35,947 nt of DNA from a virus (taxonomy: Duplodnaviria; Heunggongvirae; Uroviricota; Caudoviricetes): IMG/VR virus record IMGVR_UViG_2897375277_000005. One strand, 5' to 3'. The position numbers were made by a program, and so were the translations under genes. This document shows, piece after piece, positions 1 to 8,975 of this stretch (its first letter is position 1; each line of letters starts with the position of its first letter). Under the pieces are notes generated by a model that searched no databases, was not told the origin of the DNA, and saw nothing but the letters and a program-made list of their open reading frames with translations.

Positions 1-1023
1 TTATGTGGATGAAATGTGGATACCTCCTTTTAACGGATTAAGTGAAATTGCATCCTGGAGGAAATCAGGAGCGAGGTGCGCATAGGTCATAGTTTGCTGG
101 ATCGTGGCGTGCCCCATAATTCGCTGGAGCGTAAGTATATTTCCTCCATTAATCATAAAGTGAGCTGCAAAGGTATGGCGTAGAACATGTACAGCCTGCC
201 CTTTCGGTAGGTCAGGCTTAACACTGCGAAGCACCTTGCGATATTCCTCATAATTGACGTCAAACAAAAGGCCGGATTTCTTTGTTTTGATCTCACTAAC
301 AACTTCATCAGAGACAGGAATAATTCGAACTTTTCCGTTTTTAGTTTTGTTAAACGTCACGCGGTTATTGATGATGTGTTCCGCGCGCAGATTTTTCGCT
401 TCTCCCCATCTCGCACCAGTACTGAGACAAAGTAGCGTAATCCGCCGGGCATCACCGCTTACTGCATCCAGTAATTTGGCGATTTCTTCCGTGGTGAGAT
501 ACGTCATTTCGGGTGATTTTCGTTTCAAAGAGGGGAGGGCGCGGAGCGGATTTTCTCCGTGAAATTCCCCGGCATTTGCCAGGAGTGTAAACATTCCTCC
601 GAGATCCGACTCATCACGCCGAACAGTAGACTCTTTTACTCCCAAGGATAAACGGGAGCTTCGATAAGCGGCCATGAAACGAGCATTAATCTGGCTAACC
701 CTTGGATCATTCATTTCTTTGATGATTTTTTTCAACCTGGTTAGAACGCCGTTAGCATATGGCTTATTGCGTCCACCCAATTCCCACCATAACGGAAGCA
801 GATCTGAGAGATGACGTTGCTCTGTTGGCTTTTCAAGCCATTCCTTATCGTGCATGTGGCTGAGAACATAACGCTCAAAGGCCACTGCATCTGCCTTTTT
901 CTTAAAAATCCGCTGAATCCGACGTCCACTTCGGCCACGCGGTCTAACATCCACTTTATACCGTCCACCATCGAGCGCTTTAATTGCCATTGGCAAGCCC
1001 TCCGGTGAAACGAGGAAAGACAT
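1..1023 (-). CDS. int: tyrosine integrase (P2 Int family)
   Basis: 340-aa minus-strand ORF at the prophage end next to the repressor; C-terminal region with HxLRHT and tyrosine-recombinase-like motifs (HVLRHTFAAHF...TMTYAHL). Length matches P2 Int (about 337 aa). Confidence 0.88.
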   Translation of the reverse strand: MSFLVSPEGLPMAIKALDGGRYKVDVRPRGRSGRRIQRIFKKKADAVAFERYVLSHMHDKEWLEKPTEQRHLSDLLPLWWELGGRNKPYANGVLTRLKKIIKEMNDPRVSQINARFMAAYRSSRLSLGVKESTVRRDESDLGGMFTLLANAGEFHGENPLRALPSLKRKSPEMTYLTTEEIAKLLDAVSGDARRITLLCLSTGARWGEAKNLRAEHIINNRVTFNKTKNGKVRIIPVSDEVVSEIKTKKSGLLFDVNYEEYRKVLRSVKPDLPKGQAVHVLRHTFAAHFMINGGNILTLQRIMGHATIQQTMTYAHLAPDFLQDAISLNPLKGGIHISST

Positions 1024-1056: not shown

Positions 1057-1359
1057 TTAACCAATTTTCCTTTCGGATGGGGGTAAGTCCGTTGGCTCTT
1101 GCCCATAGTGTGCGAGAGCCGGAGCTATCTGCCCGGATTCAGGCGCAATTTTTCCAGTCATAAACCACAACGCATATTTCTCAAATCTGGGGTTGTTTAG
1201 TATTTGCTCAATTACTTCAGCATTAGGGATAGTTTTACCGCTTTCATATCTCCACAGAGCATCACGATTTAAACCAAGCATTTTTGCTGTATCCGGGAGG
1301 CTAGTAAGTCTCTCGCTTTCACGCATGATTTTTATGCGCTCTCCAATAGTCATACGCAT
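1057..1359 (-). CDS. C: immunity repressor C (P2 C-like HTH repressor)
   Basis: Translation MRMTIGERIKIMRESE...LWFMTGKIAPESGQIAPALAHYGQ closely matches remembered P2 C (LWFMTNQIAPESGQIAPALAHFGQ). Start set at the internal ATG (1357-1359) with GGAG 9 nt upstream; the track ORF begins at a TTG (1374). Confidence 0.85.
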   Translation of the reverse strand: MRMTIGERIKIMRESERLTSLPDTAKMLGLNRDALWRYESGKTIPNAEVIEQILNNPRFEKYALWFMTGKIAPESGQIAPALAHYGQEPTDLPPSERKIG

Positions 1360-1454
1360 GTTGCAATTCTCCAACGTCTGTATTAATGTTTATACAAATG
1401 AGTTTGATTTGGGGCATCCGTCGCAAGAAATACCCCAAACAGGGAGATTATCAC
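1360..1454. promoter_or_regulatory. divergent immunity switch region (Pc/Pe-type promoters and operators), positional
   Basis: 95-bp AT-rich gap between divergently transcribed C and cox. Assigned by position only; operator repeats not resolved. Confidence 0.45.
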
Positions 1455-3525: not shown

Positions 3526-3788
3526 CCATTCTGGACTACATCGCTACCCATCCGGGTTGTAGCGGCGGAGAAATCGCAGCAGCACTGAATACTCCAACCA
3601 CAGCCATTAATGCTGAGTTACGCCAACTTTGGCGCGGCGGCTTAGTCATCAGAACAAACCGCAGCACAGGTGGTCGCGCTCGCAAAACTGGAGGCCAGGC
3701 TTCTTACCACGTAAACCCGATGCCGTTCGGGTGTAGCAATCCACTTACTCACATGTTTAACCAGCTACTGAAGGAAGCCAGAACATGA
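3522..3788 (+). CDS. hypothetical early protein, possible winged-helix DNA binder
   Basis: 88 aa, ATGA-coupled to the upstream ORF; N-terminal helix-rich segment (DYIATHPGCSGGEIAAAL...LRQLWRGGLV). Confidence 0.5.
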   Translation: MTILDYIATHPGCSGGEIAAALNTPTTAINAELRQLWRGGLVIRTNRSTGGRARKTGGQASYHVNPMPFGCSNPLTHMFNQLLKEART

Positions 3789-4084
3789 GCACCATCAACC
3801 ACCAGAAGCTACGCGAACTGGCATTTGCCCTGCAACGAATGGCAACACCTCAAAAATTACTGGCATTTCGCGCAATGCTCTCGCCGTCTGCGGTGCTGGC
3901 ATTGCTGGATGAGCTGGAGCACGCCAGAACCACGGCTCCTGCCATTCGCCTGACGCTCCATCATGAAATCGCTGATTTCTGCGCGACATTGGAGGCGCCA
4001 GGCGAACCGGAAACGCCGGAAGCAATACAGCAAGAGCTGTTGCAACGCATTGACAAGGTTTTTGATTTTTTTCTGAACCAGTAA
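3785..4084 (+). CDS. hypothetical early protein
   Basis: 99 aa, translationally coupled (ATGA) to the previous ORF. Confidence 0.5.
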   Translation: MSTINHQKLRELAFALQRMATPQKLLAFRAMLSPSAVLALLDELEHARTTAPAIRLTLHHEIADFCATLEAPGEPETPEAIQQELLQRIDKVFDFFLNQ

Positions 4085-4204
4085 GAAATCAGAGCATGCA
4101 CACACAAAAAAACCGCTTGCCATGCCGCAATCAGTCAGGTTACATTTCTGCTGCACCTCATAAAACGGGTGCCGGGATTCTCAACCTGCTGACAAACGAA
4201 GCGC

Positions 4205-4228
4205 ACAACCGCGCCAGCGGTTTTTTTG
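4205..4228 (+). terminator. intrinsic-terminator-like hairpin inside the early operon
   Basis: AACCGC (4207-4212), loop GCCA, GCGGTT (4217-4222), followed by a T7 run (4221-4227). Confidence 0.4.
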
Positions 4229-4409
4229 TGCGTACTGTATTGCCACGTCTTTTTCGCACACGAATTATGGTGGGGCGTACGGGGCCGACTTCGGTCGGGC
4301 CGGTTTCTTCGTTTGCCGGTGTTGAGAACCCCGTACGTCTCGCCACCCCGAGATTCTCAACTCTGGTTGGTGAGTATCCAAAAACTCACAAACGAAGAGG
4401 CCAAACACC

Positions 4410-4640
4410 ATGGCAAACCGCAAACAGCACCGCGCTATCGCGGAGCGTCGTCACATCCAGACTGAAATCAACCGCAGACTTTCCCGCGCATTCCGCGTCG
4501 CTAAAATCATGCACATCAATATGCTGCATGAGCGTAGCTGCGAACTTTCAAACCTCTATTCATCCGCTGTTTTCAGCTATCTGGCGGATGATCTGCGCGA
4601 GCTTCAGCAGCTCTTTCAGCAGCAAAACAAACTCCATTAA
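4410..4640 (+). CDS. hypothetical basic protein (76 aa)
   Basis: ORF with GAAGAGG RBS about 10 nt upstream; Arg/Lys-rich N-terminus. No family recognised. Confidence 0.4.
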   Translation: MANRKQHRAIAERRHIQTEINRRLSRAFRVAKIMHINMLHERSCELSNLYSSAVFSYLADDLRELQQLFQQQNKLH

Positions 4641-4712
4641 TTCCTGTTCCAGGCCTTTCCTGCACCTTGCGGCGGGAGGCCTTCGCACATCTGTAGTAAA
4701 GAGAATTGCAGC

Positions 4713-5102
4713 ATGATTGACGCTCATGACTTCACAAGATGGGTGCGCACACAGGACACCCGTCTGGCTCCCATTCTTCAGGGATTATTTGATCTCTACA
4801 TCCGTGGTCGTGACAACAGAGCACGCACCACAAAACCGGAGAATGCGGACACCCTTTATTTCACAGTAGACGACTGCTACCGCGTGGATTTCACACCACA
4901 CGGGCTGGCGTTGCACTGCCTGACACCACACGGCGAATCACTGCTGGCGTATTATGACTCCCCGGCCTCCGTATTTGCGGCAATGCTGGCGCATCGCACT
5001 GCTGGCGGGTGTGCCTCGCTGAGTGAATACACCGCTGAATTTAACCGCCTTTCCGCCATCTTCTCGCAGGAGTGGCAGCGCGTGACGGGATACCAGCCAT
5101 GA
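4713..5102 (+). CDS. hypothetical protein, translationally coupled to A
   Basis: 129-aa ORF; its stop overlaps the A start (ATGA at 5099-5102). Confidence 0.55.
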   Translation: MIDAHDFTRWVRTQDTRLAPILQGLFDLYIRGRDNRARTTKPENADTLYFTVDDCYRVDFTPHGLALHCLTPHGESLLAYYDSPASVFAAMLAHRTAGGCASLSEYTAEFNRLSAIFSQEWQRVTGYQP

Positions 5103-7939
5103 GTGAGTTTGCATGGAGCTGGAATGAACCACGGCCAGCCATTGATCCGGCCAGATTTACGGAGCGCAGGCAGGAAACTGAAACCGACCTGCAACGCGCC
5201 ATCCGTTACTACCTTGAGGCGGACAAAAGGGCACAGGAAGAACAGGAAGCGAAGGAAGAAGCCTTTTTCGCACAATCCGCCATGGGTAAAAAACTCATGG
5301 CATCCCTTGAGGAAGCCGGACAGCGTGAAAAGCTGGCACAGAGCATCATCAGTAAGCGCCGGGCAACAGAACAAGACCCGGTAGCCCGTGCCTTTGCCAC
5401 ACTAAAGGCACTACCTGTTTATCTGCGTGAACCACTGAGCCGCCACCTCTCTTTCCTGCGCAAAAAACAGGAAGCCGATCGCCAGAAAGGCAAAAAGAGC
5501 TGGCAGGCGGAACGCTATGCACGCGGAACCCTGCGCAAAATATTCGAACGTCTGGATCGCACTGACGGACGCTGGCTGACACCGGGTTATCGCTCCCTTG
5601 CCGGGCGCGAACGCCTGGACGATTTGCTTTACCTGCCGCAGCTCAACAAGCACCAGATACAGACGCTGGCCACCATGACCGCGGCGATGTTCAGCAGCAC
5701 CTTCGAAACACTCTGCGATGGCTTTGGTGCCAGAGATGGCGAGCTGACCATGGATGTAATGTTGAAGGCTTACCGGATGCTGGCCCGCATGGCGTTACAC
5801 CTGCACGCCATGCCTCCACATTATGACGCACTAACAACAGACAAAGACCGGAGGAACGAACCGGACACGGAGCTGCTGCCGGGCGCAATCCTTCGCCTGA
5901 CCTGTGCGGAATGGTGGAAACGCAAACTGTGGCTGTTACGTTGCGAGTGGCGGGAAGAACAACTCCGCGCCGCCTGTCTGGTTTCCAGAAAGACATCACC
6001 CTATCTGAGCCAGGACGCGTTAAGCGAGTTTCGCGCACAGCGCGAGAAAACACGCGATTTCCTGAAAAGTTTCATGCTGGAAAACGAAGACGGGTTCACG
6101 ATTGATCTCGAGACAGTGTATTACGCGGGAGTAAGTAACCCGGTTCACCGTAAGGCAGAAATGATGGCCACCATGAAGGGACTGGAACTTCTGGCCGAAG
6201 CCCGTGGCGACAGAGCGGTGTTTCTGACCGTCACCTGCCCGTCAAAATACCACGCAACAACGGAGAACGGTCATCCGAACCCCAAATGGAACGGGGCCAC
6301 CATGCGCGACTCCAGCGATTACCTGGTTAACACGTTTTTTGCGGCGGTCCGCAAAAAACTGAACCGCGACGGCCTGCGCTGGTATGGCATCCGCACGGTG
6401 GAGCCTCACCATGACGGCACTGTGCACTGGCATATGATGGTCTTTGCACATCCGGACGAGATTGAAACCATCGTGTCCCACGTCTGCGATATTGCCATTC
6501 AGGAGGACCGCCACGAGCTGGGCGATGACATAACTCCGCGTTTTAAGGCGGAGTATGTCGACGGCTCAAAAGGCACACCAACCAGCTACATCGCCACCTA
6601 CATCGGAAAGAACCTGGACAGCCGCGCCGTGGATGGCATCGACCCGAAAACGGGCAAGCCACGCGTTGACCACGAAACCGGAAAATCAATGGCCGAGAGC
6701 GTGGAGCGCGCCATCGGCTGGGCGCGCCTTCACCGGGTCCGCCAGTTCCAGTTCTTTGGCATTCCCTCCCGTCAGGTGTGGCGTGAACTCCGCCGCCTTG
6801 CCAGCCAGATGGCACGCAACCCGGAGGGCCCGCAACGGCTGAAGGATGACGCAATGGATGCGGTTCTTGCTGCCGCTGATGCCGGGTGTTTTGCCACCTA
6901 CATTGAAAAACAGGGTGGCGTACTTGTTCCGCGCAAGGACTACCTGATTCGCACAGCCTACGACCTCGCAGATGAGCTGAACGATTACGGCGAACAGAGT
7001 GTACAGATTTACGGGATCTGGTCGCCACTCATCGGGGAATCCTCCCGTGTGTGCACGCACCCGGATAACTGGAAGCTGGTAAGACGTAAACCGGAAGCGG
7101 AAGACAGCACCCACGAAAATGGTTTTGACCTTCAGGGCGGCTCTGCCGCCCCTTGGACTCGTGGCAATAACTGTCCCCGTGTACAGGAAACAGACAACAA
7201 CGGGACAGAACAGCCGGAAGAACGGCCAGCACCGTGGCCGCAGCTTCCTGACGGCGTTGACGTGAACGAATGGGTGCGCTCACTGAAACGGCACGAACGC
7301 CGGGCGCTGATGCGTTCGCTGCGTGACAAACAGGCAAAAAACAGCAGTGATGAAATGCAGAACTGGACACAGAGCCGCAAACAGCCACAGCCTTTGCCTG
7401 ATAACCACGAATTACTCGCTAAAGAATGGCGGGAGTCTGCTGAATCTCTCGGCCTGCATATCGGTGAACAGCAGATGCAGCACCTGTTACGGGGCGGCAG
7501 TCTGTACGTTGACGGCAGCATCATTGCACCGCAGGGATTTGAAATTGTACGCAAACCGGATACCCGACCGGACAGCCGGATCACGCAGCTCTGGCAGCGC
7601 CTGAGCCGTAACCACGGCGTAAGCAGCACGGAGATCCGCCATAACCCGGTCGCCAGCTATCTGGAACAGCTGGGGGCATCAGACCCCGAAGCCGCCGCAC
7701 GCCTGGCATCCACACTTCAGCAAGACCAGAACACCATGAAAACACCCGTTACCGTGCTTTCTGACATGCTGCGCGCCATCCGCGACGCAGAGCACGCACA
7801 GAGAATCAGTGAAACCACTGAACGCGCCCGCCGCAAAGCAGACCTGCTGCGGGGTGGCCTGACCATTGGAAACAAAAAACAGACAGAAACGGGATTCACA
7901 AATCCCGTAAATGAGCAAAAAACGCGCCGCGATATATGA
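5099..7939 (+). CDS. A: replication initiation endonuclease (P2 A family, rolling-circle initiator) with long C-terminal extension
   Basis: 946-aa ORF at the P2 A position at the end of the early operon. Relaxase-like core with HWH (VHWHMMVFAH) and tyrosine (TSYIATYIGKN) motifs. About 180 aa longer than P2 A (761 aa). Confidence 0.8.
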   Translation: MSEFAWSWNEPRPAIDPARFTERRQETETDLQRAIRYYLEADKRAQEEQEAKEEAFFAQSAMGKKLMASLEEAGQREKLAQSIISKRRATEQDPVARAFATLKALPVYLREPLSRHLSFLRKKQEADRQKGKKSWQAERYARGTLRKIFERLDRTDGRWLTPGYRSLAGRERLDDLLYLPQLNKHQIQTLATMTAAMFSSTFETLCDGFGARDGELTMDVMLKAYRMLARMALHLHAMPPHYDALTTDKDRRNEPDTELLPGAILRLTCAEWWKRKLWLLRCEWREEQLRAACLVSRKTSPYLSQDALSEFRAQREKTRDFLKSFMLENEDGFTIDLETVYYAGVSNPVHRKAEMMATMKGLELLAEARGDRAVFLTVTCPSKYHATTENGHPNPKWNGATMRDSSDYLVNTFFAAVRKKLNRDGLRWYGIRTVEPHHDGTVHWHMMVFAHPDEIETIVSHVCDIAIQEDRHELGDDITPRFKAEYVDGSKGTPTSYIATYIGKNLDSRAVDGIDPKTGKPRVDHETGKSMAESVERAIGWARLHRVRQFQFFGIPSRQVWRELRRLASQMARNPEGPQRLKDDAMDAVLAAADAGCFATYIEKQGGVLVPRKDYLIRTAYDLADELNDYGEQSVQIYGIWSPLIGESSRVCTHPDNWKLVRRKPEAEDSTHENGFDLQGGSAAPWTRGNNCPRVQETDNNGTEQPEERPAPWPQLPDGVDVNEWVRSLKRHERRALMRSLRDKQAKNSSDEMQNWTQSRKQPQPLPDNHELLAKEWRESAESLGLHIGEQQMQHLLRGGSLYVDGSIIAPQGFEIVRKPDTRPDSRITQLWQRLSRNHGVSSTEIRHNPVASYLEQLGASDPEAAARLASTLQQDQNTMKTPVTVLSDMLRAIRDAEHAQRISETTERARRKADLLRGGLTIGNKKQTETGFTNPVNEQKTRRDI

Positions 7940-8015: not shown

Positions 8016-8975
8016 ATGAAAATTTGTATCGATGACGGCTCCACCAACATCAAGCTGGCATGGACTGAGAACGGCGAACGCCGCAACGCCATCAGCCCGA
8101 ACAGCTTCAAGTCGGAATGGTCTGCGCCGTTCGGTGGCACGCAGCCCGCGAACTACATGCTTGATGGCGTGCGCTATGGTTTTGATCCGGTCAGCGATCG
8201 CTTTGTCCAGACGACCGACACGCAATACCAGTACAGCGATGTGAATGTCATTGCCATTCATCACGCGCTGGTCAAATCAGGCATCACACCACAGGAAGTG
8301 GATGTGGTTGTCACCCTGCCACTGAGCGAATATTTCGACACAAACGCACAGCCGGACATGGCCAACATCAACCGCAAAAAAGCAAACGTCATGCGCCCGG
8401 TGGCGTACCAGAACGGAAAAGCATTCACTATCCGTAACGTACGGGTTATGCCTGAATCCATTCCGGCTGGTTTTAAAGCACTGGCTGACATGAGTCCGTT
8501 TGAATCCCTGCTGATTGTGGATTTAGGCGGAACCACGCTGGATGTGGCAAAGGTTCAGGGACAACTGGCAGGTATCAGCCAGGTGTTTTGCGATCCACAC
8601 GTAGGCGTTTCCCTGATGGCCGATGCCGTACTGTCGGTGATGGCCACTAACGGTATGCGTACCAGTCACCATATCGCCAATACCATTATCGAACATCGCC
8701 ACGATGAAGCCTGGCTGCGCCAGCACATCCACAATGACGCGCATTACGACAGCCTGATGGCGGTTATTCGTGAAAAGGAAGAAACACTGAAACAACGAGT
8801 GATCCGCGCGCTGGCGGGTTTTTCGGGTTACGGGCGGGTGATGGTTGTCGGTGGCGGGGCGGAGATTGTGGCACCCGCTATCCGCGAAGCCTGCGGAGTT
8901 AATGCGACTTTCATCGCGGACGGGGTGCCACAGTTTGCTCTGGTTAATGGGCTGTACGCAATGGACAAGGAGTAA
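8016..8975 (+). CDS. parM: actin-like segregation ATPase ParM/StbA
   Basis: N-terminus MKICIDDGSTNIKLAW...ISPNSFKSEW...YQYSDVNVIAIHHAL...RKKANV matches remembered plasmid R1 ParM (MLVFIDDGSTNIKLQW...ISPNSFKREW...WQYSDVNVVAVHHAL...RKKAN). Also carries the actin-fold phosphate motifs (DLGGTTLD, VVGGGAE). Confidence 0.85.
   Translation: MKICIDDGSTNIKLAWTENGERRNAISPNSFKSEWSAPFGGTQPANYMLDGVRYGFDPVSDRFVQTTDTQYQYSDVNVIAIHHALVKSGITPQEVDVVVTLPLSEYFDTNAQPDMANINRKKANVMRPVAYQNGKAFTIRNVRVMPESIPAGFKALADMSPFESLLIVDLGGTTLDVAKVQGQLAGISQVFCDPHVGVSLMADAVLSVMATNGMRTSHHIANTIIEHRHDEAWLRQHIHNDAHYDSLMAVIREKEETLKQRVIRALAGFSGYGRVMVVGGGAEIVAPAIREACGVNATFIADGVPQFALVNGLYAMDKE

Follow-up and report, generated by a model that had tools for sequence, protein, structure and literature searches.

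Control of phage immunity by antisense RNA is well described, and its best-known examples share a common plan. In the immI regions of bacteriophages P1 and P7, the antisense RNA c4 reportedly controls the icd-ant genes, and both in P1 and in the satellite phage P4 an RNA of the C4 type is cut out by RNase P. In P4, in which a kil open reading frame (ORF) and about 245 nucleotides (nt) lie between the antisense RNA, named CI or seqB, and the epsilon gene, control is exerted by premature termination. Antisense pairing also represses an antirepressor in phage P22, through the sar RNA; this is a functional analogue, different in being a true cis-antisense transcript without homology to C4. The C4 family and the associated a1b1 motif have been recognised in many prophages (Weinberg et al., 2010; PMC2864571), the IsrK locus of Gifsy-1 has been dissected and the P4 seqA/CI pair pointed to in that connection (Hershko-Shalev et al., 2016; PMC4825925), and descriptions of the IsrK-C4 system and of the a1b1 motif can be found in PMC2864571, PMC3632133 and PMC4825925. 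Our literature searches brought up no account of a C4 system in a P2-like phage. Here, we report on a stretch of viral DNA of 35,947 nt (IMG/VR record IMGVR_UViG_2897375277_000005; hereafter the window), which is a P2-like prophage of the P88 type (Xuanwuvirus, Peduoviridae), and on its region 4100-4409, which we take, with a probability of about 85%, to be an antisense-RNA immunity module, complete in itself and of the P1 immI and P4 seqA-CI-seqC type, that keeps an antirepressor gene off.

When all of the window was searched with the Rfam models at their curated thresholds, exactly two matches were obtained, both on the plus strand and both inside the interval 4085-4409, which lies in the early region between the plus-strand ORFs 3785-4084 and 4410-4640. 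The upstream match, at 4153-4227, is a leader RNA of the IsrK family (RF01394, 62.0 bits against a cut-off of 50, E = 4e-11), which we treat as the counterpart of a1b1 in P1 and of seqA in P4; the downstream match, at 4263-4350, covers the full length of the model for the C4, or CI-type, antisense RNA (RF01695, 79.2 bits against a cut-off of 45, E = 4e-14). A first-pass annotation of the same DNA, made from its letters and ORFs alone, had described this interval as a structured non-coding insert in the early operon, had offered a small RNA as one explanation and had named a covariance-model search as a check. That search gave both matches above their curated cut-offs, and the two recognised RNAs bear out the small-RNA option.

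The order of the elements is that of P1. In the annotated P1 record (NC_005856), from which the immI features were taken, the promoters P2c4/P1c4, a1, b1, a 77-nt c4 RNA, a2 and b2 (b2 with the label ‘repression of icd ant translation’) are followed by icd and ant. Like P1, the window has, in this order, a promoter, a1, b1, a terminator-like hairpin, C4, a2, a hairpin, b2 on the ribosome-binding site and the cargo gene; the site names used here are those of P1 and were checked against the P1 record and the supplement of Weinberg et al. (2010). The fold of C4 is also the same, its 5′ flank GAATTATGGTGGGGCGT is near-identical, 67 nt separate the end of b1 from the start of the C4 stem in both phages, and two short patches appear to set specificity, as they do in P1/P7 heteroimmunity. 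The differences from P1 concern the cargo, which is icd with ant1/ant2 there and a 76-residue epsilon-like protein here; the carrier, a plasmid prophage there and an integrated P2-like prophage here; the module promoter, at which no C1-type operator is seen in the window; and the leader, which scores as isrK rather than as c4-a1b1 and is accompanied by an extra long-range inverted repeat. A wider set of phages, namely the Stx2 and Stx1 phages, PhiR49_2, SfV, cdtI and phiV10, carry isrK and C4, with the sites laid out in the same way, directly ahead of genes of the Rha family or labelled ‘antirepressor’, whereas the cargo family and the recognition sequences of these lambdoid and Stx modules differ from those of the window.

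All of the motifs listed by the first-pass annotation are present in 4085-4409, and they can now be given a place in this scheme. The 10-mer GATTCTCAAC occurs at 4176-4185, where it forms the target site a1, and again at 4352-4361, where it forms a2 in the downstream mRNA; ACAAACGAAG occurs at 4192-4201 (b1) and at 4388-4397 (b2), and the latter copy overlaps the Shine-Dalgarno sequence GAAGAGG (4394-4400), which is placed about 10 nt ahead of the ATG at 4410. An inverted repeat that had been noticed at 4321-4361 consists of GTTGAGAA (4321-4328), the recognition patch a′ of C4, to which a1 is complementary as well, and of its complement TTCTCAAC (4354-4361) in a2. What had been overlooked is CTTCGTTTG, at 4307-4315, which is the exact complement of both copies of ACAAACGAAG and constitutes the recognition patch b′. 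Each 10-mer, in other words, belongs to a set of three members, the reverse complement being flanked by two direct copies. When the 10-mers are counted by themselves throughout the window and one mismatch is tolerated, they are not significant (16/100 and 4/100 shuffles). A direct repeat enclosing its own reverse complement arises in 36 of 5000 dinucleotide shuffles of 4085-4409 at k = 8 and in 7 of 5000 at k = 9, and the real interval holds two independent sets of this kind; the arrangement of the motifs is confirmed to be non-random.

For the comparative analysis, 80 IMG/VR loci encoding the same 76-residue protein (87-100% identical) were collected and P88 was added, giving 81 loci with 42 distinct intervals. 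The C4 RNA consists of a 17-bp closing stem (helix P1, 4268-4284/4329-4345), of helix P2 (4285-4298), which is the hairpin with a UUCG tetraloop already seen in the first pass, and of helix P3 (4299-4320), whose loop of 12 nt presents b′, while a′ lies in the strand that joins P3 to the closing stem. The C4 segment folded alone has a minimum free energy (MFE) of -48.6 kcal/mol (z = -4.7) and adopts the same fold as the Rfam model; all three helices are 100% paired in the 42 relatives, with compensatory changes in helices P1 and P2, and the G-U pairs that they contain indicate that the plus strand is the functional one. By homology with P1 the mature RNA is predicted to span approximately 4269-4347, and the homologous flanks, AAUUAU before the initial GG and GCCACC at the other end, are visible. 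Between a2 and b2 there is a small hairpin (GTGAGT/ACTCAC, 4370-4389) that is paired in 91% of cases among the relatives, and a hairpin at the same position can be seen by eye in the P1, P4 and Stx sequences.

Strong support for the pairing comes from the way in which these sites vary. The P88-type loci share an almost unchanging RNA scaffold, and the variation gathers in a1, b1, b′, a′, a2 and b2, with 34 of 61 columns variable within these six patches as against 38 of 246 elsewhere (p = 5e-10). Between the upstream sites and a′/b′ we counted 147 double-change cells, compared with 37 in shuffles (none of 500 shuffles reached 147), and the covariation score of 0.413 drops to 0.086 or less when the partners are slid; the downstream sites behave alike, with 140 double-change cells against 37.5 in shuffles (0 of 500 reached 140) and a score of 0.357 that falls to at most 0.112. 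The core pairs are never broken and are made by up to five types of pair: those of a1 are 100% paired with two to three pair types each across the relatives, and b1 has up to five pair types per position with its core pairs intact. The covariation to which the first-pass annotation had looked for support is found at two levels, as compensatory changes in the C4 helices P1 and P2 and as recognition patches that co-vary across relatives. Since the patches change together, they provide direct comparative evidence that all three sets of sites are functional. Family membership, architecture, complementarity and the three-way covariation of the sites are shown by these data.

The (a′, b′) pairs of the relatives form 15 combinations, built from 5 a-types and 12 b-types that reassort. 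Exact Watson-Crick runs of at least 9 nt for b and at least 7 nt for a, to both sets of targets, are present in 73 of the 81 loci. The predicted duplex energy averages -22.9 kcal/mol for cognate and -10.0 kcal/mol for non-cognate partners, and the gap to the cognate energy is as small as 4 kcal/mol in only 3 of the 210 non-cognate pairs; the cognate pairing of a1b1, with a mean of -22.4 kcal/mol, is as strong as that of a2/b2. The 15 specificities are therefore predicted to be largely orthogonal, and the pattern, as read from the sequences, is what would be expected if diversifying selection acts on the specificity of an antisense regulator, as in P1/P7 heteroimmunity. The exact b′ plus a′ address of the window was found in nine IMG/VR contigs, all of them P88-like with the epsilon-like ORF, and the same IMG/VR search gave no sign of its being shared with satellites or lambdoid phages. 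Four pairs of prophage contigs in IMG come from the same genome (L021/L042, L030/L039, L032/L071 and L072/L073); three of them combine the same a-type with a different b-type, and the fourth is identical, both of its members lying at contig ends, so that it may represent a single copy. In this sample of four pairs, the data are anecdotally consistent with co-resident prophages carrying different RNA addresses.

The leader that precedes C4 has its own predicted promoter and an intrinsic terminator. A sigma-70-like promoter is predicted at 4117-4146 on the plus strand (-35 TTGCCA at 4117-4122, a spacer of 18 nt, -10 TACATT at 4141-4146) with a transcription start near 4153; its -10 element ends 7 nt ahead of the first base of the isrK match, its sequence is unchanged across the 42 relatives, and a promoter is found at the equivalent position in P1 (P1c4), P4, the Stx phages and PhiR49_2. 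No LexA box and no words shared with the C operator were found at the module promoter, the sole match being a LexA-like word with two mismatches that falls inside the upstream ORF. Within the leader, for which isrK matches exist also in P88, P4, the Stx phages and PhiR49_2, a first hairpin (4153-4172) is followed by a second one (4173-4188) with a1 in its loop, by the single-stranded b1 and by the terminator at 4207-4227, whose stem AACCGC/GCGGTT (4207-4212/4217-4222) and T7 run (4221-4227) were correctly recognised in the first pass. The terminator stem is unchanged in the relatives, and a terminator occupies the equivalent position in the P1, P4 and Stx modules. A second promoter-like site, at 4240-4268, was considered as a promoter for C4 and was judged probably fortuitous because its -35 element varies among the relatives and P1 has no promoter there.

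A long-range inverted repeat is added to this common layout in the P88-type modules. Its upstream arm, ACACACAAAAAAACCGCTTGC at 4100-4120 (plus strand), is complementary to 4213-4233 over 21 nt at 90%, marks the left edge of the conserved module and is unchanged in the 42 relatives; the repeat, A7CCGCTTGC/GCCAGCGGT7, encloses the IsrK-like leader in full as well as the promoter of the module, and its 3′ arm is made of the 3′ half of the terminator and the U-tract. The RNA 4098-4235 has an MFE of -54.8 kcal/mol (z = -6.0) in a structure that contains this helix, which is confined to P88-type modules, including that of P88 itself, and does not occur in the P1, P4, Stx and PhiR49_2 modules. Both arms would be present only in transcripts that come from the upstream early promoter, and the behaviour of the terminator might therefore be set by the promoter that made the transcript. 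In the same region, the start codon of the epsilon-like gene lies within CATGGCAA (4409-4416), the perfect complement of TTGCCATG (4117-4124) from the -35 region of the module promoter; for an 8-mer match within 330 nt, this is roughly what is expected by chance.

The predicted cargo of the module is a gene for a derepression protein, or antirepressor, of 76 residues (4410-4640, plus strand). The encoded protein matches the Pfam ‘Derepression protein family’ (PF25738) with 29.3 bits against a cut-off of 27, a family on which P4 epsilon scores 170 bits, and in BLASTP it is 32% identical to P4 epsilon over 50 residues (E = 2e-8). The ORF is labelled ‘derepression protein’ by PGAP and RefSeq, and its variable sites are distributed over the three codon positions as 14/12/24, with the third-position excess of a coding frame; NCBIfam and PHROGs gave no functional name for it or for the ORF of 129 residues. 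The protein was found by tblastn in P88-type phages only, and a scan of species-representative genomes with the epsilon alignment returned only Escherichia albertii and one spurious match. The plausible target lies nearby: the P2-C-type repressor of the window (1057-1374, minus strand; a homologue of PDB 2XCJ/2L49, E = 5e-25) keeps the residues L63, W64, T67 and I70, and mutations of T67 and I70 in P2 C affect the binding of the P4 antirepressor epsilon. Judging from these residues, the epsilon-like protein could plausibly act on the C repressor of the very phage that encodes it. The first cargo ORF past b2 opens with ATGGC(A/T)AC in all of the modules compared (L084 at 1742, L085 at 1743, L086 at 1755, P4, and the window at 4410), and a start of the form MAT(T/I)P is found in the P4 ‘kil’ ORF and in the Rha-family proteins of the Stx phages and PhiR49_2; these shared openings point to a recombination boundary of the module within the first codons of the cargo.

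As to promoter use, RNA processing, translational block, the role of a1/b1 and the interaction between the epsilon-like protein and C, we infer the following course of events from the described systems. The promoter at approximately 4117-4146 would be constitutive and would start transcripts near 4153, the majority of which would halt at 4207-4227 and yield an IsrK-like RNA of about 75 nt with a1 in a hairpin loop and b1 single-stranded. C4 would be carried by the transcripts that read through, and probably also by early-operon transcripts arriving from upstream, and would be excised thanks to its tRNA-like stem. Once free, it would pair with a2 and b2 of the mRNA through its two exposed patches, the P3 loop presenting b′ and the 3′ joining strand a′, and the translation of the epsilon-like gene would be blocked because b2 overlaps the Shine-Dalgarno sequence; the untranslated mRNA may in addition terminate ahead of the ORF at 4713 and of the replication gene A. 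If made, the epsilon-like protein would inactivate the P2-C-type repressor, and C4 would accordingly act as a second layer of immunity, keeping the antirepressor off in the lysogen and in an incoming phage with the same address. The a1/b1 leader would bind C4, serving as a decoy or anti-antisense and, in combination with the terminator, as a target of autoregulation. In our judgement the most likely mechanism is that C4 represses the antirepressor at the level of translation, while the leader sites a1/b1 and the terminator serve as decoy or autoregulator. The earlier suggestion that the interval is an attenuator or antiterminator of gene A is only partly right: the terminator is present but is that of the IsrK-like leader, and the immediate target that we predict is the ribosome-binding site of the epsilon-like gene at 4410 and not A.

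Several observations weigh against this account. An intrinsic terminator inside an operon that must reach A sits awkwardly with pure translational repression. The module promoter matches the consensus at only 9 of 12 positions, and the epsilon link consists of a Pfam score barely over the cut-off and of 32% identity over 50 residues. The model for c4-a1b1 (RF03163, cut-off 46.7), on which P1 scores 51 and P4 scores 44.1, has no match at that cut-off in the window and none in P88 at E ≤ 0.01, although the layout given for this motif in the supplement of Weinberg et al. (2010), two hairpins around a1 with b1 directly 3′, is present (4153-4172 and 4173-4188, with b1 at 4192-4201). In the MFE structure of the unprocessed RNA 4153-4430, a1/b1 pair in cis with a′/b′ and disrupt the C4 fold, which leaves the active species and the order of events uncertain. 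Finally, the homologous leader of Gifsy-1 is an activator, and a small ORF within the C4 region is translated (PMC4825925), so that both the direction and the level of control could be different here.

The alternative that survives best, though we consider it tentative, is that the module acts chiefly through transcription termination, as in P4. Pairing of C4 with the nascent a1/b1 would enhance termination at 4207-4227, giving autoregulation, and its pairing with a2/b2 would lead to premature Rho-dependent termination, leaving the epsilon-like gene, ORF 4713 and A silent in a resident or superinfecting phage. The P4 CI RNA is said to promote termination at t1, t4 and timm, and t1 is reportedly an antisense-RNA-dependent terminator. 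The module and its cargo closely resemble those of P4, in which the C4 model gives 74.9 bits for the CI RNA and the isrK model 60.8 bits for the seqA region, with epsilon downstream on the same strand and the replication genes further downstream; like alpha in P4, A of the window lies downstream of its module in the same orientation. A terminator follows b1 in every module examined, and that of the window corresponds in position to the P4 terminator between seqA and the CI RNA; if it behaved as t1 is reported to do, C4 acting on a1/b1 would feed back on termination. On the other side, b2 lies directly on the Shine-Dalgarno sequence, immediately ahead of the epsilon-like gene, unlike in P4 and as in P1, whose primary event is a repression of translation, and between C4 and the ATG nothing resembling a terminator was found. 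P4 differs also in being a satellite whose epsilon attacks the repressor of its helper, while the gene of the window is in a helper-type phage with a P2-C-like repressor of its own. By analogy with P4, termination control that reaches ORF 4713 and A is plausible; this alternative is the one nearest to the attenuation proposed in the first-pass annotation, and it is compatible with translational repression by C4.

Somewhat more doubtful is a mechanism of the Gifsy-1 type, in which the read-through RNA is made inert by cis pairing of a1/b1 with C4 and is remodelled in trans by the short IsrK-like RNA, possibly with Hfq and with translation of a small ORF from the conserved AUG at 4267-4269, leading to synthesis of the antirepressor and to induction. 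The Gifsy-1 locus (IsrK, orf45/STnc1160, AnrP) has a leader of the same Rfam family, transcribed from a promoter of its own and ending in a leaky terminator; downstream there follow a stable processed RNA that is complementary to IsrK and, as cargo, an antirepressor. Overexpression of IsrK activates this antirepressor and induces the prophage (PMC4825925); Hfq binding with activation in trans of the read-through mRNA is known for Gifsy-1 only. In the window the isrK family match exceeds its cut-off, the MFE of 4153-4430 pairs a1/b1 with a′/b′ in cis, as predicted for the leader and downstream RNA of Gifsy-1 (‘structure A’ of PMC4825925), and the AUG, inside AAUUAUGG, is kept in the P1, P88 and lambdoid modules. 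Gifsy-1 is nevertheless lambdoid with another family of cargo, and its published model is one of trans activation through a translated ORF of 45 codons that leaves out a processed C4 repressor (PMC4825925). Moreover, an activator-only model has no need of a2/b2, which are perfect C4 targets that co-vary with a′/b′, and the frame starting at 4267 is shifted or shortened in about 12 of the 79 relatives. This mechanism and repression by C4 are not mutually exclusive, and regulatory translation from this AUG, by analogy with orf45 of Gifsy-1, may still occur.

It is very improbable that the interval is simply protein-coding, with the plus-strand ORF of 206 residues (4096-4716) or the minus-strand ORF 4158-4346 as a real gene and the RNA motifs as incidental features: the plus frame runs through the RNA region without a stop codon in 77 of 79 relatives, has a weak match to Phage_ASH (PF10554) and stops in an overlap with the ATG of the next ORF (ATGA, 4713-4716), and both ORFs are carried as coding sequences (CDS) in public records (PhiR44_2 and P88, respectively), but the match of 20.3 bits is below the cut-off of 26, it spans residues 16-87, encoded by nt 4141-4356, which is precisely the region of isrK and C4, the same family also hits an obsolete ORF of P4 (‘cI’) lying over the CI RNA, the substitutions are RNA-compensatory rather than codon-like, the frame is shifted in about 12 relatives so as to end inside epsilon, the epsilon frame has the best synonymous-to-nonsynonymous ratio and the third-position excess in the overlap, and the minus-strand ORF has no family match and would turn the G-U pairs of C4 into A-C mismatches. 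Both ORFs were rejected as genes on this evidence of family matches and frames, and the 206-residue frame is regarded as a by-product of RNA conservation; the doubt that the first-pass annotation had cast on it, taking it for read-through, was well placed, with a sub-threshold Phage_ASH score, frameshifts in relatives and a coding signature in the epsilon frame. The ATGA in which its TGA (4714-4716) overlaps the start of ORF 4713-5102 is an arrangement typical of translational coupling, and the epsilon-like ORF ends 72 nt earlier; the overlap may be a coincidence, or ribosomes starting at the AUG 4267-4269 may couple to the downstream gene.

The Ash family itself appears, from the sequences that it matches, to be a translation of the conserved RNA module. 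The obsolete P4 ‘cI’ ORF (P4 8168-8584, minus strand) scores 59.7 bits on PF10554, and the real P4 epsilon matches PF25738 instead; a survey of P4-like satellites took PF10554 as its ‘epsilon’ marker (PMC8628076). In public records, the PhiR44_2 entry has the plus-strand read-through ORF (4313-4930) as a CDS and omits the epsilon-like gene, and the P88 entry has the minus-strand ORF (5033-5221) over C4 as a CDS. Hypothetical proteins are called over the module in both P88 and PhiR44_2, and the C4 and IsrK-like RNAs are unannotated in these two and in the RefSeq Escherichia coli genomes. The module with its cargo is found in 1184 of 5426 complete E. coli genomes, where it amounts to 1356 copies and up to four per genome, with only the ‘derepression protein’ annotated. 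The structured non-coding insert of the first pass becomes in this way a defined regulatory device, and the public annotation of the region is corrected.

The system is a member of the well-described class of P1 immI, P4 immunity and IsrK-C4, and not a new kind; what is new is modest and consists of the presence of the module in a helper-type P2-like phage with an epsilon-like antirepressor, of the extent to which its addresses have diversified and of the long-range helix specific to the P88 type. The module probably governs whether P88-type P2-like prophages stay silent, and it therefore matters for predicting prophage induction and the interplay of helpers and satellites. More speculatively, and on balance we think it unlikely, IsrK-C4 and the epsilon-like gene could form an autonomous, RNA-addressed switch of induction and immunity, in which the addresses decide on the mutual silencing or induction of co-resident helpers and possibly of P4-type satellites, and which would be the source or a sibling of the P4 immunity-epsilon region. 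If this were true, at least 15 addresses (5 a-types and 12 b-types) would be diversifying and reassorting combinatorially in one lineage, and the helper phage would hold the same weapon that its satellite turns on it. Fifteen natural and apparently orthogonal two-site RNA addresses on one invariant scaffold make up a test set for antisense specificity and for the evolution of heteroimmunity, and the set could be used as parts for synthetic RNA regulators.

The remainder of the early region is that of an integrated P2-like prophage. The integrase (1-1023, minus strand) and the P2-C-type repressor are followed by a Cox-like protein (1386-1781), and replication protein A (Phage_GPA) starts at about 5072, downstream of the module and in the same orientation. 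A search of the window for tRNA and tmRNA genes found none. Downstream of gene A, the plus-strand ORF 8016-8975 bears a ParM-like or ‘plasmid partition’ label in homologous phages, a ParM-like accessory gene being unusual for an integrated P2-like prophage.

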